Source: a virus. Taken from it: DNA of 64,000 nt. This document shows positions 5,213 to 41,771 of this stretch, in pieces; within the stretch, counting starts at the first letter, position 1, and the number at the start of each line of letters is the position of its first letter. The notes below the pieces were generated by a model. That model was not told where the DNA came from and searched no databases. It saw only the letters and a list, made by a program, of their open reading frames with translations. The stretch lies in IMG/VR virus record IMGVR_UViG_3300045988_111426. One strand, 5' to 3'. The position numbers and the translations under genes are program-made.

Positions 5213-6638
5213 CTTCGAGTTTTCTATCGTTTTTCTTAATATGTTCTATGAGCTTCTTGTTCAACACGACCATTTCATCAAACTTGGACGAGAGTGCGTT
5301 ATATCTGTCGATGATTTGCATCATTGTCGCCATTATTCTTGAAGAATCATCATTTACAGAGTGATGAGAAACGGCATCACCATAGTGGAAATCGGTCTTA
5401 AAGTTCAGTTTATATGACAGCGAATTACCCTGCTGATATGTGACGTTATCATGTCTTATTTTTCTTACTGTCGAGAGAACAGCAGATTCCGTGTTATATG
5501 GGACTACATCACCAAGGAACAGAACACCATAAAGATTGGTCACTGTTTCCCCAGAAGAATCTTCAACATCGTAATAGACGAGGATACAGTTGAAATCAAA
5601 GCTTCGTGCACCAGACTTCGTATTAAAATCACCGAGCGTGGATATTCTATCAGAATGTGTCTTGTTATATTCTTCGATCTGCTTGTAAGATGACACCTCA
5701 AAGTCGATCGAGATACCATCAAGTGATGATCTTTTGAAAGTGACTGGATCAGAACCATCTGCGTATGATCTCGTGATTTCTACATTCGTGGCATTTCCGA
5801 ACTCTTTATCGGTATAGTAACCATTTGGATACAACGTCGATTTCTCTTGCATCCACTGTTGAGAATAGGTCAGTGTGCCTGGTTGTGTGTCACAGTCATA
5901 AACCGCTTCCACAGAAAGTCCCATGTCGGTGATGTCTCTCGAACTTCTACCGTTTATAAGTTCAGATTGCGCACGATGTCTTACCACAGTCTGTTCGTTA
6001 TAGTTCTTATCGGATATTGATCTGAACATCACTTCTGGAGTAGAACCGTGATCAGAGGGAATGTTGATATAAGCTTCTGAATAAGAATCACCGTCGACGA
6101 TATTCTCTCTTACAGAAATGTCGATATCACCGATGTATTGAACAACTTTGTCGTATATTTCAGATTTTTCCTCGGTGAAGCGTTTGTCTTTGTCCGCTTT
6201 GAACTGTGACACCTCGGGCTGTTCTTCAAATCGGATCGCCCCAGTTTCCTTGAGCCACTTGAAGAAGATTCTCTCGGATGCATTTCGAAGAGTGGCACGG
6301 TCATAAGTGTCGGATTCAAGGAGAATGCTTTCCATGTTGAGGATGTAGTTTTGGAAAGATTCCGAGAGAATCTTCCTTGCACGGTCATGGATAAGGAGCG
6401 TCTTCTGACTATAGTCCGAGGTGTAGAAGCCTTCTATTCTTCGTGCATCAAGCGTATTTCTCTGAGAGGTATTTGTTTTAGATGCAACGATAGGTGGAAG
6501 ATTGAGAAGTGCAAACTTTGAAAACTTAAATCCGTTCGCATCATTCCCAGATGAAATCGTCTTTACATCTTCACCAGACGATTTAAAAGTTATAAATGTT
6601 CCCCTTTTCAGAAGTGGAAGAAGAGGTGTATAAGACAT
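5190..6638 (-). CDS. hypothetical virion-type protein
   Basis: Track ORF of 482 aa with the TAAATAACGAAA motif 14 nt upstream. Confidence 0.65.
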   Translation of the reverse strand: MSYTPLLPLLKRGTFITFKSSGEDVKTISSGNDANGFKFSKFALLNLPPIVASKTNTSQRNTLDARRIEGFYTSDYSQKTLLIHDRARKILSESFQNYILNMESILLESDTYDRATLRNASERIFFKWLKETGAIRFEEQPEVSQFKADKDKRFTEEKSEIYDKVVQYIGDIDISVRENIVDGDSYSEAYINIPSDHGSTPEVMFRSISDKNYNEQTVVRHRAQSELINGRSSRDITDMGLSVEAVYDCDTQPGTLTYSQQWMQEKSTLYPNGYYTDKEFGNATNVEITRSYADGSDPVTFKRSSLDGISIDFEVSSYKQIEEYNKTHSDRISTLGDFNTKSGARSFDFNCILVYYDVEDSSGETVTNLYGVLFLGDVVPYNTESAVLSTVRKIRHDNVTYQQGNSLSYKLNFKTDFHYGDAVSHHSVNDDSSRIMATMMQIIDRYNALSSKFDEMVVLNKKLIEHIKKNDRKLEDGRKIND

Positions 6639-30230: not shown

Positions 30231-31880
30231 ATGAAAAAATTGAGGACTGTAGGTTCTTCGGCTATATTCGACATAGAGAAATCGCCAATGGAGATCGAGT
30301 ATGTTATGGAGAAGGTTGAAGGTGAAAACTCATCTTCCTTGCTTCTCCGAGACTTTACGACTTCTTCCGATGGGAAAAATTGGGATTCGTGGAAATCGTA
30401 TAACAGAGATTCTCTTGTCGGTGTTCACGGAAAACATATCAAAGTCAGATACTCTCTTGTGGAGAACTTCTTGGGATCGACTATATCGATCGAGAAACCA
30501 CTAATCAAGTACAAATCTCCACAGACCACTTTTATAGATCAAGGAGAATCGTTCCTGCTGTCTGGTGTGGATTCACTTGCTGATTATTCTCGAATGTCAA
30601 TAGGTCTTCAGAAATTGGAGATCGACATGAACTATTACATCCAGCAACATTCAGCGGTGAGTGTTAAGTATTGGCACACAAATCCAGATCTGAAGTCCAA
30701 AGATGAGTTCTTAAGAGAATATTCTCTGCAGAATGTCGTCGACATGAAGATCTTAAAAGTTGTCTTGAAAGACAACCAGATCCCAGAACCTAAGCATGAG
30801 TTCTCACAATGGGGGATCGAGTTTGAAAAACTGGAAGTTTACTTTGAGAAGACCTATTTCGAAGAAGTGTTTGGGATAAAAGAAGAACCAAGAAAAATGG
30901 ACTACCTTTACTTCTCGGAGATTAACAGAATGTACATGATCCAAGACGTTTATCTCAATCATGGGATAGGTGAACATGGAAGCTTCTATGTTTGTACAAT
31001 CAAGAAGTATGAAGACATGACGAATGTCGACAAAAGGGATGATGATCTTGAGTTCTTAAAAGAACACGTGAAGATTGACGATTATTCAGATGAACAAATA
31101 GACGAAATGGAAGACATGCAGAACACGAAGCAAAATCTGGACAACGTAGGGGTTGATGATCTTCTTCATTCAGAGTTTGATCCAAGTCTTGTTAAATCTG
31201 AAAGATGTGATTATGATAACAATGGGAACTCACTTGGAAAGTTCATCTACGACATGTCAGTAGGGAAAACTGGAGAAACAGCTATCAAATACCTCCCGAG
31301 AGTTCATTCACGGCAGGGGATTTCCTTCATGTTCTGGATAGAACTTCTCGACGACAGTCTTTCGAAAGTGATCAATGTAGATGGGAAACCATTCTCAATT
31401 TCCGTTTCAACAAAGAACATAGTCGTCAGTGGTGAACATTCGTTCTCTTTGGAAATTGATCTTGAGCGGAGAAAGTTCTATTGTGTTGTCATAGGAATCA
31501 ACAATGAACACCACTTTATGAGGTTCAATATCTATCAAGTAAACGATGGAGATTCAACAATTCTCAAGAGTGTCTTCGACCATACAGAACCAATGGAGAA
31601 GGTCATGAAACTTCTGTACAGAGAAAGGTCATCTGTTTTGGAGATTGATGGACAAGTCGCACTAATTACTGGGAAATACGCCATTCGACAGATTCGAATC
31701 GCAAATCACGAAGTTGATGAAACTTACCATTCTTACATTATGTCGAAACAAATGGTGAAGACACCTTCGAAGTTCTTCATAATCGATGATTGTCGTGATC
31801 CATTGAACTTGGATAAAAAGTCAAGATCACTTTTCAGAGAAATCAACGAAAGTTTCCTTAAAAGAAGAACCATTCACTAA
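30231..31880 (+). CDS. hypothetical large protein
   Basis: Track ORF 30084..31880 trimmed to the ATG at 30231 (MKKLRTVG...). The longer form overlaps the phosphatase gene. Confidence 0.55.
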   Translation: MKKLRTVGSSAIFDIEKSPMEIEYVMEKVEGENSSSLLLRDFTTSSDGKNWDSWKSYNRDSLVGVHGKHIKVRYSLVENFLGSTISIEKPLIKYKSPQTTFIDQGESFLLSGVDSLADYSRMSIGLQKLEIDMNYYIQQHSAVSVKYWHTNPDLKSKDEFLREYSLQNVVDMKILKVVLKDNQIPEPKHEFSQWGIEFEKLEVYFEKTYFEEVFGIKEEPRKMDYLYFSEINRMYMIQDVYLNHGIGEHGSFYVCTIKKYEDMTNVDKRDDDLEFLKEHVKIDDYSDEQIDEMEDMQNTKQNLDNVGVDDLLHSEFDPSLVKSERCDYDNNGNSLGKFIYDMSVGKTGETAIKYLPRVHSRQGISFMFWIELLDDSLSKVINVDGKPFSISVSTKNIVVSGEHSFSLEIDLERRKFYCVVIGINNEHHFMRFNIYQVNDGDSTILKSVFDHTEPMEKVMKLLYRERSSVLEIDGQVALITGKYAIRQIRIANHEVDETYHSYIMSKQMVKTPSKFFIIDDCRDPLNLDKKSRSLFREINESFLKRRTIH

Positions 31881-31909
31881 ACGAAGAGACTTATCAACTA
31901 AAAAGAAGA

Positions 31910-31945
31910 ATGTGGGGAGAAGATGTTCGAAACTTCTCCCCACAT
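31910..31945 (+). terminator. hairpin
   Basis: ATGTGGGGAGAAG / CTTCTCCCCACAT. Confidence 0.6.
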
Positions 31946-32028
31946 CTGTATTCAAACATTGACCTTCCAGTCATATTCAGAAAAATTGACTGGAAAAATG
32001 ACTGGAAATGTGTTATTAAACTATCACA

Positions 32029-32131
32029 TTAAAGGAAGGTACTTTCCTTGCACTCGAAATAGCCCGAGAATATGAAAATAGCGGAAAATGGATCAGAGTT
32101 CAAGGAAAGTACCAAGGAAAGCCAAGGAGAG
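32029..32131 (+). repeat. dispersed hairpin element, copy A
   Basis: GGTACTTTCCTTG at 32038, core GAATATGAAAATAGCGGAAA, and CAAGGAAAGTACC at 32101 followed by AAGGAAAGCCAAGGAGAG. Confidence 0.85.
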
Positions 32132-32180
32132 GTATTCCGTGAGACTATGGGTCATCGTCCGAAGGCAATAGACCATTTCG

Positions 32181-32275
32181 AAGGATTATGGAAGACTATG
32201 GAAGACTATGAAAGACAATGACGATTGTTGAAAGACAACGGAGGATTATCAAAGGATTATGAAGAGACAATAGTT
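32181..32275 (+). repeat. 10-bp-phased degenerate repeat array
   Basis: aaggattatg|gaagactatg|gaagactatg|aaagacaatg|acgattgttg|aaagacaacg|gaggattatc. The units stay in register with the 10-nt blocks of the listing. Confidence 0.75.
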
Positions 32276-32286
32276 CTGATTTGTTA

Positions 32287-32392
32287 ATTAAGACGAGGTA
32301 CTTTCCTTGCGCTCTGAGATATTCAAGAATATGAAAATAGCGGAGACTATACTCGAGTTCAAGGAAAGTACCTTCCTGTAATCAGGAGACAT
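32287..32392 (+). repeat. dispersed hairpin element, copy B
   Basis: GGTACTTTCCTTG at 32297 and CAAGGAAAGTACC at 32360, then TTCCTGTAATCAGGAGAC. Confidence 0.85.
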
Positions 32393-32399
32393 ATTCTCG

Positions 32400-32580
32400 A
32401 GGATTATGGGTTTCTGTCGGAAGACAATCAAAGACAATGACTGATTATGGAAAGACAATGATGATCATCAAAGGACTATTGAAAGACAATGACTAATCAT
32501 CGAATACTATGAACGATAATCGGAAGACAATGAAGGATTATCAAAGGATTATTGAAAGAAAATGGCTAAAAATGGTCGAA
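32400..32580 (+). repeat. 10-bp-phased degenerate repeat array
   Basis: aagacaatca|aagacaatga|ctgattatgg|aaagacaatg|atgatcatca|aaggactatt|gaaagacaat|gactaatcat|... Confidence 0.75.
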
Positions 32581-32685
32581 TTAAAGAGAGGTACTTTCCT
32601 TGTCCTCGAAGACATTCAGTGGGGTAGAAATAGCGTCAAATAGATCAGAGCGCAAGGAAAGTACCTTCCTGTAATCAGAAGAGGT
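32581..32685 (+). repeat. dispersed hairpin element, copy C
   Basis: TTAAAGAGAGGTACTTTCCTTG at 32581 and CAAGGAAAGTACC at 32653, then TTCCTGTAATCAGAAGAG. Confidence 0.85.
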
Positions 32686-32699
32686 ATTCTGTTGAATGG

Positions 32700-33290
32700 T
32701 GGGTTTCTGTCGGAAGACAATGACTATTGTCAATGACTATGGAAAGACAATCGACTATGGAAAGACAATAGAGGATCGTGAAAAGATCATCAAAGACTTT
32801 GAAAGACAATCAAAGACAATAGCTGATTCTTTGAAGACTTTGGAATCTATTGATTAATCATTGAAAAGATCATCACTTCTTTGAAAATTTCTCTAAAGAT
32901 TGATTGATAGACTGATGACTTTTGTCTGAATCATAGATTTCCGCCCCTTTAATGATAATCGTTTTGAAGACAAAAGATGATCGTTAAATGGTTTTATTGT
33001 GGACGAGGATTGTTGAAAATCAAAATCAGTCTTTTTTGAATCCCAGAATAGACCAGAACAATTGAAAGAGACCATTGATGATTCCCGAGATATTTATGAT
33101 TCTTGGAAAGACTATGATTCTTGGAAAGACAATGGAGGATTATTCAAAGAGAGATTGAAATTGAAAGATAATCATTCCAAGAACGGAGATTTGTTAAGAA
33201 TTGTTAACTGATTTTGAATGGAAAGTTGAAAATTGGAGGATTCATCAGACAGATAATCATACAGATAATCAGATTATCCTCGGAATTTGC
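32700..33290 (+). repeat. extended degenerate repeat field (GAAAGACAAT / GACTATGG / GATTATC family)
   Basis: The same short units recur throughout, and no protein-like ORF is present. Confidence 0.6.
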
Positions 33291-33372
33291 CGACAAACCG
33301 TGCGTATACACGAAACTTTAAAAAAACGCGCGAATTCCCGTGTATACCCGTATACGCATGCGGTATTTTTTT

Positions 33373-33497
33373 CCAGTTTTATCGTAAATACAAAGTATTT
33401 ACAACTGGTTTGGGGTCAGCCTTGGCACGATAGTGCCAAGCCAGGCTGCCCCAAACCATACATTGAGCGCAGAAACATGTCGTGCGCATGTTTTTAA
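33373..33497 (+). ncRNA. candidate small structured RNA or DNA structure at the centre of the palindromic region
   Basis: Three consecutive hairpins: CCAGTT..GTAAATAC/GTATTTAC..AACTGG (33373-33408), GGTTTGGGGTCAGCC..TGGCAC/GTGCCA..GGCTGCCCCAAACC (33407-33457), and AAACATG/CATGTTT plus a T-run (33473-33495). Confidence 0.3.
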
Positions 33498-33714
33498 ATT
33501 TCCAGTTTAAACCAAAAGTACCAGGTGCGTGTTAGGGAACTTTAAAAAAACGCATGCGTGAAACTCCAAAAAAAGCGCACGCACGCAAAAAACTTTAAAA
33601 AAGACCTGTGTCAAATCCCCCGAACAGATTAACACCTTTTAACACCTTAAAACCGATATTCTCTTTCCAAGATATTCCTCCCATAAGCCACAGAGACCAT
33701 AACCCTCGAAAATA

Positions 33715-33820
33715 TGTCTCCTTGGCTTTCCTTGGTACTTTCCTTGAACTCGAGTATAGTCTCCGCTATTTTCATATTCTCAGATATCTCAGAGCGCAAG
33801 GAAAGTACCTTCCTTTAATT
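33715..33820 (-). repeat. dispersed hairpin element, copy B' (reverse complement of copy B)
   Basis: GGTACTTTCCTTG at 33734, core in reverse (TCCGCTATTTTCATATTC), and CAAGGAAAGTACC at 33797. Confidence 0.85.
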
Positions 33821-33824
33821 CAAT

Positions 33825-33960
33825 TATTTTCGATCATTGTCTCGATAGTCATTGATGATCTTCCATTGTCCTTCATTATTGTCATAGTCTTTTGATAATC
33901 CTTGGAAATAACCATTGTTTTCGGAAGATGATTCATAAACCTCAAAAATGTTCAGAATCG
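33825..33960 (-). repeat. mirrored degenerate repeat array
   Basis: CATTGTC / CATAGTC / GATAATCC units, which are reverse complements of the left-arm units. Confidence 0.65.
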
Positions 33961-34004
33961 ATATTCCCATGTGAACCGAGGAGACCATAATAATCAGAAA
34001 ATAC

Positions 34005-34107
34005 TCTCCTTGGCTTTCCTTGGTACTTTCCTTGCGCTCTGATCTATTTTCCGCTATTTTCATATTCTTGAACCTCTCAGAGCGCAAGGAAAGTACCTCT
34101 CTTTAAA
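34005..34107 (-). repeat. dispersed hairpin element, copy A' (reverse complement of copy A)
   Basis: CTCCTTGGCTTTCCTTGGTACTTTCCTTGCGCTCTGA ... TCAGAGCGCAAGGAAAGTACCTCTCTTTAAAG, with a 21-bp perfect stem. Confidence 0.85.
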
Positions 34108-34173
34108 GCGTATCAATTGATAATACACTTTAACACATTTCTTCAATCTTCAATCATCCCTCAAACAACAATC

Positions 34174-34235
34174 CGCCAATCTCCGATGAATTGGTTCTTT
34201 TTGATAAAAAAGAACCAATTCATCGGAGATTGGCG
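34174..34235. terminator. 29-bp perfect hairpin followed by a T-run
   Basis: CGCCAATCTCCGATGAATTGGTTCTTTTT gata AAAAAGAACCAATTCATCGGAGATTGGCG TTTTT. Confidence 0.55.
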
Positions 34236-34381
34236 TTTTTGGCATTAATAACTGTGATGGTCGTGAATAGCTTCCAATAATCCTCCAAAATCATCAATAA
34301 TCATCATTGAAACTAACATCTTGACATTCACAATAAGAACACCGAAGCAATCATTCAGAAGAGATTGTTTAAGGTTGGTTC

Positions 34382-34454
34382 GATTTCATAGCTCAACAGG
34401 TAGAGCACTGCACTTTTAATGCAGGGGTTGTGGGTTCGATCCCCACTGGAATCA
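34382..34454 (+). tRNA. tRNA-Lys (anticodon TTT)
   Basis: Hand-folded cloverleaf: acceptor GATTTCA/TGGAATC, D-arm GCTCAACAGGTAGAGC, anticodon stem CTGCA/TGCAG with loop CTTTTAA, T-arm GTGGGTTCGATCCCCAC. Confidence 0.85.
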
Positions 34455-34475
34455 CAAAAAAGAACAAGAAACACA

Positions 34476-35021
34476 ATGCAAATCTTCGAAGATTACAAAT
34501 TGGTGACTTTCTTCACTGGTTCGGACATTTTTAGCAACTTCTATAAGTCTGAGATCGATTATAATGGGATGACTTTCCATTGCGGTGAATCGTTGTTCAT
34601 GTTCTTGAAAGCGAAGTACTTCGGTGATGAAGATATCGCAATGGAAATCCTCAAGAACTCTGATAGTCCTCGTTTTTGTAAAGAGCTTGGAAGACTTGTT
34701 CGAAACTTCGAAGATGGAAAATGGTCATCTGTCAGATATGACGTGATGCTCTTTGTAGTTCTCATGAAGCTAAGATCTTCCAAGACAATCAGAGATCACT
34801 ACACACAACTGATAGATGAAGGTTATGAGTTTGTAGAAGCCAGTCCTTATGACAAAATCTGGGGGTGTGGACTTGCAGAAAATGATCTTCGTATCTTGGA
34901 CAAATCAAAGTGGAGAGGATCGAATCTTCTTGGTACGGTTTACAACAATGTTCACGAGATTCTGGATAATGATTCATTGAGAGATCTTTCGGATGTTTTT
35001 GGATACAGTAAAACGTTCTAA
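34476..35021 (+). CDS. NADAR (DUF1768/YbiA-like) domain protein
   Basis: FFTGSDIFSNFY...GMTFHCGESLFMFLKAKYFGD...KIWGCGL. Track ORF trimmed to the ATG at 34476, because the longer form starts inside the tRNA. Confidence 0.65.
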   Translation: MQIFEDYKLVTFFTGSDIFSNFYKSEIDYNGMTFHCGESLFMFLKAKYFGDEDIAMEILKNSDSPRFCKELGRLVRNFEDGKWSSVRYDVMLFVVLMKLRSSKTIRDHYTQLIDEGYEFVEASPYDKIWGCGLAENDLRILDKSKWRGSNLLGTVYNNVHEILDNDSLRDLSDVFGYSKTF

Positions 35022-35090: not shown

Positions 35091-35164
35091 GTTCCAATAG
35101 CTCAGTCGGTAAGAGCAACTGACTCATAATCAGTAGGTCGTAGGTTCAATCCCTACTTGGAACA
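35091..35164 (+). tRNA. tRNA with CAT anticodon (Met, or Ile2 if lysidinylated)
   Basis: Acceptor GTTCCAA/TTGGAAC, D-arm GCTCAGTCGGTAAGAGC, anticodon loop CTCATAA, T-arm GTAGGTTCAATCCCTAC. Confidence 0.85.
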
Positions 35165-35177
35165 CTCAAGAAAAAAT

Positions 35178-36643: not shown

Positions 36644-36658
36644 TGGTTGATCATAAGC

Positions 36659-37801
36659 ATGTTAAGAGCAATTAAAGTAAGGTTATATCCAAACAAAGCG
36701 CAGGAACAAGAACTTAACAAGGTTCTTGGTGCTTATCGTTTTGTCTATAACCACATGCTCGATAAAAGAAAGACTGCTTATGAAACTGACAAGACAAGTC
36801 TAAGCGAAAACGATCTATCAAAGTACTTCCATGGAACATTGCTGAAAGATGAACAACATGTTTGGATAAAAGAACAGAACACAAAGGTGATGAACCAAGC
36901 AATCAAACAGATGGTCGGTGCTTATCAAAACTTCTTCAATCATCATAAAGGATTTCCAAAGTTTAAATCAAAGAAAGACAAACAATCGGCATTGTTTCCT
37001 CGTAATGCCATTTCAAAGAGGAACACTTTCGAAACGAAGCACATAACTTTAATCACTTCCCTTAAGAACCTCAGATTCCGTTGTTCTGACTTATATCACA
37101 AACGCTTGCAGAAATACAAGGACAACATAAGAAGCGCAACTCTCTCGAAAACCAAGAGTGGGAATTTCTTCTTGTCGATTCTTGTAGACATTCCCGAAGC
37201 GGAATTTGTGAAATTCGGAAAGACCAACAAACAAGTTGGTATTGACCTTGGCGTGAAAGATTTCGTTATAACCTCCGATGAAACTGTGTTTGAAAACAAA
37301 CACTTCTTCAAGAAGGAGGAAAAGAAGATGATCAAACTTCAACGTCAATTATCCAGAAAGGTCAAAGGTTCAAACAATAGGAACAAACAGAGAATCAGAC
37401 TTGCAAAAGTGATTGCGAATATAACGAACAAGAAAGAGAACTACATCCACTCAGTTGTGAACGAGATATTGAAATCATACGACACGGTGTTCATGGAAGA
37501 CTTGAATATTAAAGGGATGCTTGGAAATCGTTATCTTGCGAATGCTATCCAAGAGTCTGGATTTTATCGGTTCAAGTCGATATTGCAATATAAGGCTCTT
37601 ATGAATGATAAGCGAGTTGTTCTTATCAATAGGTTCTATCCAAGTTCAAAGACTTGTTCGTGTTGTGGTTACAAGAAGAAAGACTTGAAACTCGGTGATA
37701 GGTTTTGGACTTGTCCCGAATGTGGTGAATATCACGACAGAGATATAAACGCTTCGAAGAACATTCTTTTTGAAGGACAAAGAAAACTTCGAACTGGCTA
37801 A
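36659..37801 (+). mobile_element. tnpB: TnpB (IS200/IS605-family OrfB) RNA-guided nuclease gene, with no tnpA
   Basis: N-terminus MLRAIKVRLYPNKAQEQ. RuvC-I GIDLGVKDF, RuvC-II VFMEDLNIKGM, Zn finger CSCCGY...CPECGEYHDRDINASKNI (RuvC-III Asp). Confidence 0.85.
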
Positions 37802-38090: not shown

Positions 38091-38558
38091 ATGATTAGTC
38101 CTACAGAGTTTTACGAAGGTCTTGATAAAGGTGAATATAAGACGAATATCAAGATATATCAATCATCACAGACATTGGACTACAATGGAAGTCCAATGTT
38201 TGAGGTTGAAATAACAACAACAAAAACACGGATGCCTATCAAAGACGATCCTTACGATAGTCCCTATGAGTTCAAGCTCACGATAAAAAGGAATCAACGA
38301 GAAATCAACGATTTTATCACACATGTAAAGTTGGTTAGCTTACGTTGGAAATCATCTGAAGAGGTTGATAAAACCGTTGCTAAATTGGAACGGCTTATAA
38401 ACGATTTCACTAATGCTTGCTATGGCTATCAAAATGGAGAGTACAACTCAAGATCGGACTATTACGCATATCTAACATTGCGAGGTTGTTATGAATATCT
38501 AAGCTCGTACTTTGATGATTTACAATATGTCTACGATGCTTATATTGTACGGACTTAA
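38091..38558 (+). CDS. hypothetical protein
   Basis: Track ORF of 155 aa. Confidence 0.55.
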   Translation: MISPTEFYEGLDKGEYKTNIKIYQSSQTLDYNGSPMFEVEITTTKTRMPIKDDPYDSPYEFKLTIKRNQREINDFITHVKLVSLRWKSSEEVDKTVAKLERLINDFTNACYGYQNGEYNSRSDYYAYLTLRGCYEYLSSYFDDLQYVYDAYIVRT

Positions 38559-38615
38559 TAAGTCTGTCACACACAAATCCCTAAACAGAAGAATAGTTAA
38601 AACTTGAATCGAAAC

Positions 38616-39569
38616 ATGGTAAGGAAGGCAACTAATAAGTTACTTCAGAAGGCTAAAAAGCAGAAGAACGACGAGTTCTATACGCAACTTATTGACATCG
38701 AGAGAGAATTGCGACATTATGAAAGCTATTTTAAGGGGAAAGTTGTGTATTGCAATTGTGATGATCCTTTGACGGGTAACTTTTTCAGATACTTCGTTTC
38801 TAACTTCAAAGCATTAGGACTTAAGAAGGTGATCGCATCTTGTTATAAGGAAAACGGTCATGGCTTTTTCTTTGAATACACAGGGACAGAACTTGCTGAT
38901 GCAGATCCAAAGACCGCCAATGTTGTCTACTTCAAGGGCGATGGCGACTTTCGTAGCCAAGAAAGTATTGCCTTACTGGAACAATCTGACATAGTTGTTA
39001 CCAATCCACCATTTTCGTTGTTCCGTGAGTATGTTGCACAATTAACAAGATATGATAAGCTCTTTCTCATTATTGGGAATATCAACGCCATCACTTATAA
39101 AGAGATTTTCAAGCTCATTCAAGATGGTAAGGTATGGCTTGGTGTGAATATTGCGAGAGGAATTTCTGGGTTTGTTGTACCAGCTCATTATGAACTCTAC
39201 GGAACAGAAACAAGGATAGACGAATCTGGTAACAGGGTTGTATCTACCAACAATTGTCTGTGGCTTACGAATTTGGACAATTTTACGCATCGTAAAGAGA
39301 TCTCGCTTACCAAAAGCTACTATGGGCACGAACATGAATATCCCAAATACGACAATTATGATGGTATAAATGTTGATAAGACTAAGAACATACCACGAGA
39401 TTACAGTGGTTATATGGGAGTTCCGATAACATTCTTACATAAATTCGATCCACGCCAATTTGAGATTGTGGGTTCCAGAAAGGGAAACGATGGGAAATGT
39501 TTATCTGTGAATGGGAAATGTTCTTATTTTAGGATAATCATCAAGAAGAAACAAACTACGACTAAATGA
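38616..39569 (+). CDS. N6-adenine DNA methyltransferase (EcoRI-methylase-like family)
   Basis: KNDEFYTQ near the N-terminus and catalytic VVTNPPFSLFREY. The TTG start in the track was replaced by the ATG at 38616. Confidence 0.6.
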   Translation: MVRKATNKLLQKAKKQKNDEFYTQLIDIERELRHYESYFKGKVVYCNCDDPLTGNFFRYFVSNFKALGLKKVIASCYKENGHGFFFEYTGTELADADPKTANVVYFKGDGDFRSQESIALLEQSDIVVTNPPFSLFREYVAQLTRYDKLFLIIGNINAITYKEIFKLIQDGKVWLGVNIARGISGFVVPAHYELYGTETRIDESGNRVVSTNNCLWLTNLDNFTHRKEISLTKSYYGHEHEYPKYDNYDGINVDKTKNIPRDYSGYMGVPITFLHKFDPRQFEIVGSRKGNDGKCLSVNGKCSYFRIIIKKKQTTTK

Positions 39570-39730
39570 TCTGATCAATAGAGATCAATGATGATAAAAA
39601 GAAGGAAACGAAACCGATAGGAAGATCAAATAATAAGACTTATGAAGAGATTCAGAAAAAGGTCTGATGATCTAACCATAAAGATCAGAGAGGTTCGACC
39701 CCTCTTCTCTTCGCAAAAATAAAAAGGAAC

Positions 39731-39814
39731 AGAGGTGTCGCATAGTGGCAATTGCAAGTGACTGTAAATCACTCGTCTTAAAAGGCTTCGTAAGTTCGAT
39801 TCTTACCACCTCTA
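39731..39814 (+). tRNA. tRNA-Tyr (anticodon GTA), class II with long variable arm
   Basis: Acceptor AGAGGTG/CACCTCT, D-arm GCA-TAGTGGCAAT-TGC, anticodon stem AGTGA/TCACT with loop CTGTAAA, T-arm GTAAGTTCGATTCTTAC. Confidence 0.8.
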
Positions 39815-40175
39815 CAAAAATAAAAAGAAAAAGCGACTCGAGGGCTACTTGAAAAGATACACAGTAGCTATCTTCACGGAATCTTTCATAGAGTTGGGAC
39901 TTTCTTGAAGATATCGCAATATTGAACAACAACTCTATCACTCGGCTTGGTCTTTGATTAATGGGACTATAGGTCGATAGGTAAAGAACAACCTTGATAG
40001 CGTGTAAGATTATCAGAAAAGTCTCTTGTGCAGAGTGACAAAGCCCTCATTGGAGAAGCTAAAATCCCTAGTGGTTTGAACCATGATGATGATACGGCTG
40101 TTGAGTAGATTGAGAGAGCGTTTAGGATTTATAGTGATGCTCCACCAACCTCTCTGGGCAAGTAAAAAACTCGTT
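39815..40175 (+). ncRNA. ORF-free inter-tRNA spacer, candidate structured RNA
   Basis: 361 nt between two tRNAs. Long-range complementarity GAGGGCT (39840) / AGCCCTC (40041). The GAAGATATCGCAAT box is shared with 40288-40301. Confidence 0.25.
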
Positions 40176-40260
40176 GGAGAGATGGCAGAGCGGTCTATCG
40201 CATCAGTCTTGAAAACTGAAGGTCGGAAACGATCCGTGGGTTCGAATCCCACTCTCTCCT
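40176..40260 (+). tRNA. tRNA-Ser (anticodon TGA), class II
   Basis: Acceptor GGAGAGA/TCTCTCC, anticodon stem TCAGT/ACTGA with loop CTTGAAA, long variable arm GGTCGGAAACGATCC, T-arm GTGGGTTCGAATCCCAC. Confidence 0.8.
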
Positions 40261-40743
40261 CAAAAATGACTATTGGATTCACAGCAAGAAGATATCGCAA
40301 TTGCTCCTAAAAATTACGTAGTCCACTGGGAAGTCATCAAAACAAAAGCGTTCTTTTAAAGAATTCTCAATGTCGAGATTTATAGACATACAGCAAACAT
40401 AATTATTCATAACTGGCTCATAGACCGTCTGTAGTAAAGATTTCGACGAAAACATTAAGAAAACATCCGTTTAGATAGCAGATTTCCTGCATTGAAAATC
40501 TAAGGTTAATGGCTTCGTGCTCCTGTCGGCACTATCTGCAGTCATCTAAACGGTTATCAATCATAGTCTCCGATTTGCAGATATTCAGCAATGAATCTTC
40601 ATTATCGTTTGTCTACGTGTTAAACGTCTGCAGTATAATCGGAATCCATAAAGTGATGACACTATACTTCGCCTCCTACAATAGGTTCACCACTTTTTGT
40701 TGTTAGAAGGGCTGTCGTTCGATTCAGAGAACGACAGCCCTTC
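40261..40743 (+). ncRNA. candidate large structured ncRNA downstream of tRNA-Ser, ending in a strong terminator
   Basis: There is no credible ORF. Nested helices: CCGTTTAGATAGCAGAT (40467) / ATCTGCAGTCATCTAAACGG (40534), and CCGATTTGCAGA (40570) / TCTGCAGTATAATCGG (40626) enclosing two hairpins. Terminator GAAGGGCTGTCGTTC/GAACGACAGCCCTTC at 40706-40743. Confidence 0.4.
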
Positions 40744-40786
40744 GTCATTTTCTAAAGATAACTAAAAAGATATCACAACACATACG

Positions 40787-41089
40787 ATGAAGAAGACTTT
40801 AAAGCGTAAGATGCTTACCGATGGAGAACTGTCTATCCGATTTGAACGAGATAGGTACTTGGATACTGAGAAAGTTGCTCGTGGAAATGGCTATAAGATG
40901 TTCAAGTACCGTGGTCGATTTTTAGCAGAAGTTCGTGGGAAGAATCCTCGTTATGTCCAAATCTTTAAACATAAACACGTCTCTATGGGAAGATGTAACT
41001 GTTCGCTATGTGAATGGCGAAGAAAACGTACCATTCAATATAAGGCGAAAAAGATGAACGAGAAGACAGAAGCATTTGGAGAATGGTGA
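40787..41089 (+). CDS. hypothetical basic protein
   Basis: Track ORF of 100 aa. Confidence 0.5.
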   Translation: MKKTLKRKMLTDGELSIRFERDRYLDTEKVARGNGYKMFKYRGRFLAEVRGKNPRYVQIFKHKHVSMGRCNCSLCEWRRKRTIQYKAKKMNEKTEAFGEW

Positions 41090-41112: not shown

Positions 41113-41151
41113 GAAAGGCGACAACTCGATTTAGAGAGTTGTCGCCTTTTC
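41113..41151 (+). terminator. rho-independent terminator
   Basis: GAAAGGCGACAACTC / GAGTTGTCGCCTTTTC. Confidence 0.65.
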
Positions 41152-41294: not shown

Positions 41295-41771
41295 TCATTT
41301 AAAGAACTTCTCTGTCACGAAGAGATATTTCCAACCTCTCTCTGCACAGAACTTTTCTGCAGATCTTCTCTTTACTTCTACATTCAGATTTGTCTGTAGT
41401 TCTCGGCTATATGTCGATTTCGATTTCTTTGCACTTCTCTTAGGAATCTGAGTTTGAGAGTAAGGTTTTACTTCTATGAGGAACGTTTTAAGTTCTCCCT
41501 TCACTCTCATCTGCATCCAAAAATCTGGGTAGTAAGTCCTCTGTTTTTGCATCATTGGATCGAAATACGAGATCTTTGTGTCGGGATGTTCGTATGTCCA
41601 CTTTTCTACATTCGGATTCGCATCAATAAGTCGCATGAACTTGAGTTCTAAAGATGATCTGTACGGAACACCTTCTTTGTTGAGATGTCCAACAAACTTG
41701 TCCTTATTGGTTGGAATGTAGTAACCTTGTTTATATCCTCTTGTGTTATTAGGATTTGGATTCTGTAGCAT
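41295..41771 (-). CDS. head completion nuclease, T4 gp4-like (PD-(D/E)xK)
   Basis: YRSSLELKFMRLIDANPNVEKW, YYPDFWMQ, FLIEVKPYSQT, and a C-terminal ...AEKFCAERGWKYLFVTE. Size of 158 aa fits. Confidence 0.6.
   Translation of the reverse strand: MLQNPNPNNTRGYKQGYYIPTNKDKFVGHLNKEGVPYRSSLELKFMRLIDANPNVEKWTYEHPDTKISYFDPMMQKQRTYYPDFWMQMRVKGELKTFLIEVKPYSQTQIPKRSAKKSKSTYSRELQTNLNVEVKRRSAEKFCAERGWKYLFVTEKFFK

Follow-up and report, generated by a model that had tools for sequence, protein, structure and literature searches.

Two structured RNA elements in the tRNA array of a large tailed phage as candidate new non-coding RNA families

Two structured RNA elements, which we call SP1 and SP2, lie among transfer RNA (tRNA) genes in IMG/VR record IMGVR_UViG_3300045988_111426, analysed here as a stretch of 64,000 nucleotides (nt), the window, to which all positions refer. 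The plus strand of the locus carries, in order, a tRNA-like relic (39644–39714), tRNA-Tyr(GUA) (39731–39815), SP1 in the Tyr–Ser spacer of 360 nt (39816–40175), tRNA-Ser(UGA) (40176–40261), the SP2 core (40262–40645) and an intrinsic terminator (40706–40743) that closes this unit of tRNAs and non-coding RNAs (ncRNAs). ARAGORN and Rfam agree on both tRNAs, neither of which encodes CCA. A sequence-only reading made earlier had placed the same two tRNAs here, and they are real, their 3′ ends falling at 39815 and 40261 in our annotation. About 445 nt separate tRNA-Ser from the terminator, whose perfect stem of 15 base pairs (bp) and T-rich tail fold at −30.3 kcal/mol (z = −7.5), in keeping with the strong terminator noticed in that reading. 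Relatives carry other stems at this site, with compensatory changes, and the two strands are always complementary.

SP1 and SP2 are structured and conserved, and the structured molecule is the plus-strand transcript. SP1 has a structured core of about 330 nt (∼39833–40158) with A-rich linkers on either side, folded into at least 11 helices and two pseudoknots that are supported by covariation in homologues. For the whole element in clades A and C, described below, 84 pairs are 90.5% canonical and 19 are changed on both sides, against 4–7 in slid controls, in which helix partners were shifted by 1–3 columns. The stems of tRNA-Ser, which covary among relatives, served as a positive control for the helix scan.

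The 5′ domain of SP1 (39833–39938, plus strand) is a three-way junction made of a four-bp closing helix, P1 (39833–36/39914–17), a hairpin, Pa (39844–39868), with a 15-nt loop (UUGAAA.GAUA.A.A) that is invariant in all clades, and a long hairpin, Pb (39869–39913). The Pb loop (39888–39896) pairs with 39930–39938, a segment past the conserved AUAUUGAACA, to give pseudoknot PK1. This domain has 31 pairs, whose cells are 89.6% canonical in a set of 17 sequences drawn from all five clades; 22 of the 31 pairs are changed on both sides (4–12 when slid). All six pairs of PK1 covary in this set, and the pseudoknot occurs in five sequence versions (AUAGAGUUG/CAACUCUAU, UAUAGG/CCUAUA, UGCAG/CUGCA, AUGAGA/UCUCAU and GCAAGGU/ACCUUGU). 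The 3′ domain (39943–40158, plus strand) consists of the hairpins Pc (39943–39976), Pd (39979–39994), Pe (39996–40014) and Pf (40023–40035), Pg (40043–40098) enclosing Ph (40071–40084), Pi (40116–40142) and Pj (40103–05/40152–54). It also holds a second pseudoknot, PK2, a long-range helix between about 40058–40073 and about 40119–40135 in which AAAUCC(C)UAGUG pairs with CGUUUAGGAUUU; PK2 covaries in all clades and reaches 12 contiguous bp in clade D.

The SP2 model rests on nine homologues (67–93% identical) and comprises 86 pairs in 14 helices with 97.8% of pair cells canonical; 12 pairs are changed on both sides, compared with 1–2 in slid controls. It is built of four hairpin modules, D1 (40266–40340), D2 (40372–40447), D3 (40467–40553) and D4 (40569–40643). 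Both long-range helices noticed from sequence alone are present and correspond to D3 and D4, the second of them being one of a set of three similar modules. The D3 helix pairs 40467–40476 with 40544–40553 (10/10 bp) outside an inner GCAGAT/ATCTGC helix, the D4 helix (CCGATTTGCAGA/TCTGCAGTATAATCGG) spans 40570–40641, and both fold locally better than shuffles (z = −2.4 and −2.6). D2, D3 and D4 look related to one another. Their units from all genomes co-align at 63% mean column identity, sharing an outer helix, an internal loop on the 3′ side, an inner helix (..YAGAY/RUCUGYAG) and an apical motif (WCAGCAA...GAAUCUUCA...UAAUYGGYU), and D1 carries the CACAGCAA motif seen in D2–D4. This resemblance came out only by unit-wise alignment; simple local alignment of the domains to each other and to the tRNAs of the window returned nothing beyond a 14-nt box discussed below. 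Profiles of D2 and D4 are reciprocal best non-self nhmmer matches in the window (E = 0.03 and 0.06), and no further copies of the modules were found elsewhere in the window or in the loci of clades C–E. Nor was a convincing long-range helix between SP1 and SP2 detected.

Among relatives the 3′ end of SP2 takes two forms. In variant II (the window, L156, L165 and L167) the core is followed by a plus-strand hairpin (AAAGUGAUGA...UUCACCACUUU, 40650–40697), predicted by folding and found with this 3′ end only, which has a pyrimidine-rich loop (CCUCC) and precedes the terminator; it shows pairing-preserving changes in L156, L165 and L167 (alignment read by eye). In variant I (L001, L006, L078, L157 and L161) a tRNA-like element, a hairpin leader and tRNA-His follow instead; the 5′ part of the tRNA-like element is the 3′ strand of D4, its anticodon loop has 6 nt, and in L006 it scores 42 bits with the Rfam tRNA model. 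The CCUCC loop is unlikely to be an anti-Shine-Dalgarno seed because none of 26 genes (0/26) has a Shine-Dalgarno motif.

The strand assignment comes from the helices themselves, which contain 103 (SP2) and 150 (SP1) G-U cells. On the minus strand the same helices would be only 85.1% canonical for SP2 and 76.6% for SP1, in place of 97.8% and 90.5%, so the folded molecule is the transcript of the plus strand, which is also the tRNA strand.

To collect homologues, IMG/VR and metagenome contigs were searched with protein anchors and with sequence patterns, and homologues of a neighbouring protein of 155 amino acids (aa) led to clades D and E. SP1 is present in five clades (A–E) of metagenomic phages of 150–250 kb, with 14 non-redundant contigs in clades A–C, and these three clades are 45–63% identical to one another. 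The gene order is Tyr–SP1–Ser(tga)–SP2 in clades A and B, Ser(tga)–SP1–Ser(gct) in clade C and Thr–SP1–Tyr followed by a transfer-messenger RNA (tmRNA) gene in clade D. In clade E, SP1 lies within a conserved block of ∼950 nt free of open reading frames (ORFs) and is followed directly by a tRNA-like minihelix that lacks an anticodon arm and ends in ACCA. The boundaries of SP1 are kept across these contexts, and one or both of its ends always lie 0–8 nt from a tRNA or tRNA-like element. In one contig (L195) the 3′ two-thirds of SP1 is retained and the 5′ domain is swapped for unrelated sequence. Since SP2 is missing from the SP1-bearing clades C, D and E, what had been taken for a single structured locus beside the tRNAs is indeed structured RNA, but consists of two separable elements. 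Covarying helices in homologues had been named beforehand as one test of that proposal, and the signal is strong (12, 19 and 22 pairs changed on both sides for SP2, whole SP1 and the SP1 5′ domain, against the slid controls).

SP1 and SP2 are known so far from about twenty metagenomic contigs. BLAST of the locus against 50,697 GenBank phage records matched the tRNAs alone, and a pattern scan of one genome per bacterial species gave four chance matches and no homologue. Looser pattern scans (ATCGNNATATTGAACA and the module motif) returned mostly chance matches, which were removed with nhmmer, and an 18-mer match in L036 was likewise due to chance.

The 14-nt box GAAGATATCGCAAT, reported earlier from both spacers, does occur exactly at 39907–39920 in SP1, where it spans the 3′ strands of Pb and P1, and at 40288–40301 in SP2, where it fills the apical loop of D1 (both on the plus strand), but it lacks conservation. 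The sequence is repeated exactly once more, at 34629 within a NADAR-domain gene, and the D1 apical loop varies among homologues (ATTACTATGCAAT, CAAATATCGCAAT and others). The exact 14-mer recurs among relatives in the NADAR gene (four contigs; encoded peptide EDIAM), at the SP1 site in the window and L078/L163, and at the SP2 site in the window, L001 and L167/L183. Such sporadic occurrence means that it does not define either element.

We consider it probable, with moderate confidence, that SP1 and SP2 are stable, trans-acting ncRNAs cut from the tRNA precursor by tRNA-processing enzymes. In this scheme the region from 39.6 to 40.75 kb would be an ncRNA operon that runs from the tRNA-like relic through tRNA-Tyr, SP1, tRNA-Ser(UGA) and SP2 to the terminator, SP1 and SP2 being co-transcribed with the tRNAs on the plus strand up to that point. 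Both elements share their strand with the tRNAs and the upstream genes, and a single strong terminator ends the unit; gene order, strand and the butt-joints with the tRNAs thus point to co-transcription and processing. Host tRNA-maturation enzymes would then release SP1 and SP2 as discrete RNAs, ribonuclease (RNase) P freeing the upstream RNA by a cut where the next tRNA or minihelix begins. RNase Z or 3′ trimming is proposed to act at the preceding tRNA because the tRNAs encode no CCA.

Release of this kind would work in the way known from ‘tRNA punctuation’ in mitochondria and from MALAT1/mascRNA. In mitochondrial transcripts, in MALAT1–mascRNA and in the tRNA–microRNA transcripts of murine gammaherpesvirus 68 (MHV68), an adjoining tRNA or tRNA-like structure recruits RNase P or RNase Z and so sets the ends of the RNA. 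The anatomy of SP1 fits this pattern, including the acceptor/T-arm minihelix ending in ACCA of clade E; the known cases, however, are eukaryotic or organellar, and cleavage at this locus is a prediction from anatomy. A bacteriophage parallel is provided by the stable RNAs C and D of T4 (species 1 and 2; rnaC/rnaD), non-tRNA products of the T4 tRNA cluster that are co-transcribed with it and matured by host enzymes, and for which we know of no function. They are shorter (∼120–140 nt) than SP1 or SP2. As for activity, the repeated motif of SP2 may be recognised by some factor, for which SP2 would be a multivalent platform or a decoy, and SP1 may bind a ligand or protein, or self-assemble like the other large RNAs of phage tRNA islands. 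Action in trans during infection is the least supported step of the scheme and is suggested tentatively.

Several observations weigh against this explanation. In three clade C contigs ∼630 nt lie between SP1 and the next tRNA, so that the 3′ end of SP1 could not be made there by RNase P at a tRNA. No promoter was identified by a sigma-70 scan, which is uninformative here; as none of 26 phage genes has a Shine-Dalgarno motif, the host probably uses other signals and the scan says little. Whole-spacer folding energies are no better than those of shuffled sequences (z = −0.47 and −0.81), so that folding energy alone cannot support the earlier description of the stretch as highly base-paired, which covariation in homologues does support. 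The scores for paralogy among the SP2 modules are modest (D2/D4 E ∼0.03–0.06 in 64 kb) and weaker still for D3. Finally, tRNA relics are common in the region, and part of the sequence may therefore be of tRNA origin.

The main rival is that SP1 and SP2 act purely in cis, as folded spacers that prevent misfolding of the tRNAs, set processing sites or shield the precursor from exonucleases, and have no function once excised. We regard this as the less likely account, though one to be taken seriously. Both elements always adjoin tRNAs, with A-rich linkers and a common CAAAAAU trailer after each tRNA, and the overlap in relatives between the D4 3′ strand and the 5′ part of the tRNA-like element makes a leader–tRNA pairing switch possible. 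On the other hand, 330 nt with two pseudoknots and invariant loops far exceed the needs of an insulator, the SP1 sequence is kept beside four different tRNAs and a minihelix, and most tRNAs of the same arrays stand 5–30 nt apart with no such spacer.

A bolder proposal, which we hold to be unlikely, is that SP1, alone or as part of an SP1–tRNA–SP2 transcript, is a new ornate RNA-only machine. It might form a cage or scaffold like ROOL and GOLLD, or be a ribozyme or decoy directed at the host tRNA or translation apparatus, with SP2 as a four-valent sponge for one RNA-binding factor. Anticodon-nuclease defences are suggested as a target because SP1 keeps company with tRNAs for Lys, Tyr, Ser, His and Gln. 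Both GOLLD and ROOL are large RNAs of phages found near tRNA islands, with a tRNA at times inside GOLLD, and their function is not established (PMC12286853).

It is very unlikely that the two elements are debris, that is, decayed tRNA genes and duplicated tRNA fragments under no selection for function. The relic at 39644–39714 (plus strand) is such a remnant: its acceptor stem counts 7 bp, the D arm and the T arm (AGAGG-UUCGACC-CCUCU) are present, its anticodon arm is aberrant, and it is called by ARAGORN at the 80% threshold only and not by Rfam. The tRNA-like elements with a 6-nt anticodon loop that follow SP2 in five relatives, the 3′ strands of D2–D4 (GUCUGUAGU...), which resemble the start of a tRNA, and a module size near that of a tRNA also speak for this idea. 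Yet cloverleaf features were found only in the relic and in the tRNA-like element after SP2 in L006, and the domains have no detectable similarity to the tRNAs of the window. SP1 and SP2 gave no ARAGORN call at the default or 80% threshold. The 70% calls, among them a ‘tRNA-Ser’ within SP1 (40069–40155) with a poor T arm that we judged spurious, clash with covarying helices. Helices and pseudoknots foreign to tRNAs are maintained by compensatory changes between clades with no more than 45–63% identity, and covariation thus largely refutes an origin as debris.

Equally poor, if not poorer, is the case for a divergent GOLLD or ROOL, or a tmRNA, RNase P RNA or group I intron, too far diverged to be picked up by its model; we judge it highly improbable. 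The 4227 models of Rfam 15 were applied at the gathering score over the 64 kb, at E ≤ 10 over 39500–40900 and, for eight loci of relatives, at a cut-off of E ≤ 1 or 0.5, and no model, including those of GOLLD, ROOL, tmRNA, RNase P and the group I intron, matched SP1 or SP2 in the window or in those loci. The searches returned only tRNAs, together with tmRNAs in relatives, and the weak matches (sX4, plastid untranslated-region families and YrlA) all overlap tRNAs. Their sensitivity was adequate, as the genuine tmRNAs of L168 and L327 were recovered in these very searches.

There are resemblances to GOLLD (RF01998) nonetheless. GOLLD is a large, intricate phage or prophage RNA in or beside tRNA islands (PMC12286853), a tRNA can separate two structured parts of it, as tRNA-Ser does within the ∼870 nt of SP1, tRNA and SP2 (PMC12286853), and its 5′ region is replaceable, as is the 5′ domain of SP1 in L195. 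SP1 and SP2 differ in having no covariance-model match, in the occurrence of SP1 without SP2 in clades C, D and E and in showing no detected SP1–SP2 pairing. ROOL (RF03087), which has no known protein partner, is likewise large, pseudoknotted and encoded by phages close to tRNA genes (PMC12286853), but is ∼580 nt long, compared with ∼330 nt for SP1, and its model does not match. The suggestion that the locus might belong to the GOLLD or ROOL classes or represent a new one therefore holds in its second branch only.

Other known RNAs fare no better. By eye, GAAAGUC recalls P4 of RNase P, a helix with conserved GAAAGUC...GGCUUA partners, and UUCACAG...GUAGUCC recalls the R/S elements of group I introns, but these motifs have no consistent pairing partners in other clades and no model matches; in particular, GAAAAGUC (40016–40023) has no partner consistent across clades in alignments read by eye. 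SP1 and SP2 also lie between complete tRNA genes and not inside one, as a group I intron would. A tmRNA is a further analogue, being a pseudoknotted RNA of ∼360 nt in the tRNA arrays of related phages (L168 5713–6079, minus strand; L327 5620–5987; L328 2568–2933; 128–139 bits), with the tag GNNTFRVAA in L327 and L328. SP1 and SP2, by contrast, have no tRNA-like ends, tag reading frame or model match, and since tmRNA and SP1 coexist in L168 and L327 they are distinct genes; neither ARAGORN nor Rfam found a tmRNA in the 64-kb window. A type III antitoxin (ToxI-like) or CRISPR/TIGR-type array would consist of near-identical tandem repeats of about 30–45 nt beside a cognate nuclease gene. It was rejected, as no tandem repeat family was reported in the region, the modules are 75–90 nt long and only ∼63% alike, and the neighbouring genes code for a methyltransferase and an unknown 100-aa protein. 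SP1 and SP2 match no described family in sequence and structure and are best classed as new families within an already familiar kind of RNA.

Small proteins, for example from a 65-aa ORF at 40509–40706, have a negligible chance of explaining the stretch: its ORFs, on both strands, are all short (25–65 aa), and not one keeps its place or frame from homologue to homologue. Their positions and lengths differ in relatives, the spacers often gain or lose 1, 2 or 4 nt, most indel lengths not being divisible by 3, and variable sites fall about equally in the three codon positions (82/89/82 and 87/85/89), without 3-periodicity. A conserved small protein, the finding that would have spoken against a structured RNA from the outset, was thus not seen in any homologue.

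The surroundings of the locus are those of a large tailed phage. The window encodes an NAD-dependent ligase, helicases, a UvsX-like recombinase and SbcC, as well as a head protease and a major-head-like protein, and ARAGORN and Rfam agree on four tRNAs in its 64 kb, tRNA-Lys (34382–34455) and tRNA-Met (35091–35165) being the other two. A NADAR-domain gene (34476–35021, plus strand, E = 3e-32) stands between them. tRNA-Tyr is flanked by 19-nt direct repeats (CAAAAATAAAAAG..., 39714–39732 and 39815–39833). The segment around the relic (39599–39732) is 95% identical to relative L006, which has no tRNA-Tyr and in which the flanking sequences meet at the repeat (5443–5680). This arrangement is consistent with recombination between common CAAAAAU trailers, through which a tRNA would have been gained or lost.

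On the plus strand 5′ of the locus are genes for an unknown 341-aa protein, TnpB (36647–37801), an unknown 155-aa protein (orf155, 38091–38558) and an EcoRI-type adenine methyltransferase (38604–39569). TnpB is an IS200/605 OrfB, Cas12f-like, within the phage tRNA region, and 289 nt of non-coding DNA lie 3′ of it, where a guide RNA would be expected. Its position differs among relatives, clade C has N-terminal fragments only, and in L156 a fragment is inserted in the 100-aa gene just after SP2. An IS200/605 TnpB omega RNA was considered for SP1 and SP2 and rejected, since tnpB lies 2 kb upstream, varies in position and is absent from the L005 stretch, which keeps both elements. The 155-aa protein, which has no Pfam or PHROG match, was also rejected as a partner protein: it is encoded just upstream of the SP1 unit in clades A–D but 4.5 kb away in clade E. 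In clade E (L324–L335) its homologue adjoins an upstream gene with a Pfam ‘Sequestin’ domain (PF21825), with a T4_Y16D-family gene near by.

A 100-aa gene and then a minus-strand gene for a TnsA-like endonuclease (41295–41771) follow the locus. The endonuclease is 96–100% identical in protein sequence across clades A and B, where its neighbours are only 77–93% identical, and its gene has the look of a mobile (homing-type) gene that has spread recently. A second strong terminator-like hairpin of 14 bp (41114–41149, minus strand), just past the 100-aa gene, marks the meeting point of plus- and minus-strand transcription units. A host resembling Bacteroidota is hinted at by the lack of Shine-Dalgarno motifs. 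The motif AATAACGAAA has eight exact copies in the window (for example at 2585, 6652, 12244, 17422, 44979, 45027 and 52312), and those checked lie 10–25 nt ahead of start codons, making it a candidate phage promoter or leader element.

Further non-coding features were seen at a distance from the locus and in relatives. A repeat-rich region of 2.5 kb with no long ORF (31880–34400) contains a hairpin unit of ∼85 nt (AGGTACTTTCCTTG...CAAGGAAAGTACCT) in five copies, which are arranged about a central part and divided three to two between the strands. Iteron-like units of 10 nt (GAAAGACAAT, GGAAGACTAT) occur there by the dozen, and 34174–34235 forms a perfect 29-bp hairpin; one copy of the ∼85-nt unit follows the SP2 terminator in L167. 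The region could be a replication origin or another ncRNA region. The clade E block that contains SP1 (about 1335–2300 in L324; also L325, L329, L332 and L334) is 88–96% conserved and continues after the minihelix with ∼500 nt of conserved non-coding sequence, another T-arm-like element and a strong hairpin; the block has no Rfam match. Clade C relatives carry a suppressor-type tRNA with anticodon UUA, which reads UAA (L002 2724–2797, L168 2267–2340 and L172 1698–1771), and this hints at stop-codon recoding in that lineage.

Our results bear on the large structured RNAs of obscure function, which are rare and several of which, such as GOLLD and ROOL, are found in phage tRNA islands. SP1 and SP2 are independent examples with which to ask what the RNAs of tRNA islands do. 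With its ∼330 nt and strong covariation, SP1 is suited to cryo-electron microscopy or chemical probing, and its position beside a tRNA or a minimal tRNA-like helix offers a simple system for RNase P/Z-dependent release of a non-tRNA RNA in bacteria, while the repeated motif of SP2 provides a handle for finding a binding partner. Even if the two elements were only processing spacers, ∼0.85 kb of unannotated phage DNA would be explained. As two more unrelated folds, they suggest that the tRNA arrays of big phages are a general home of complex ncRNAs.

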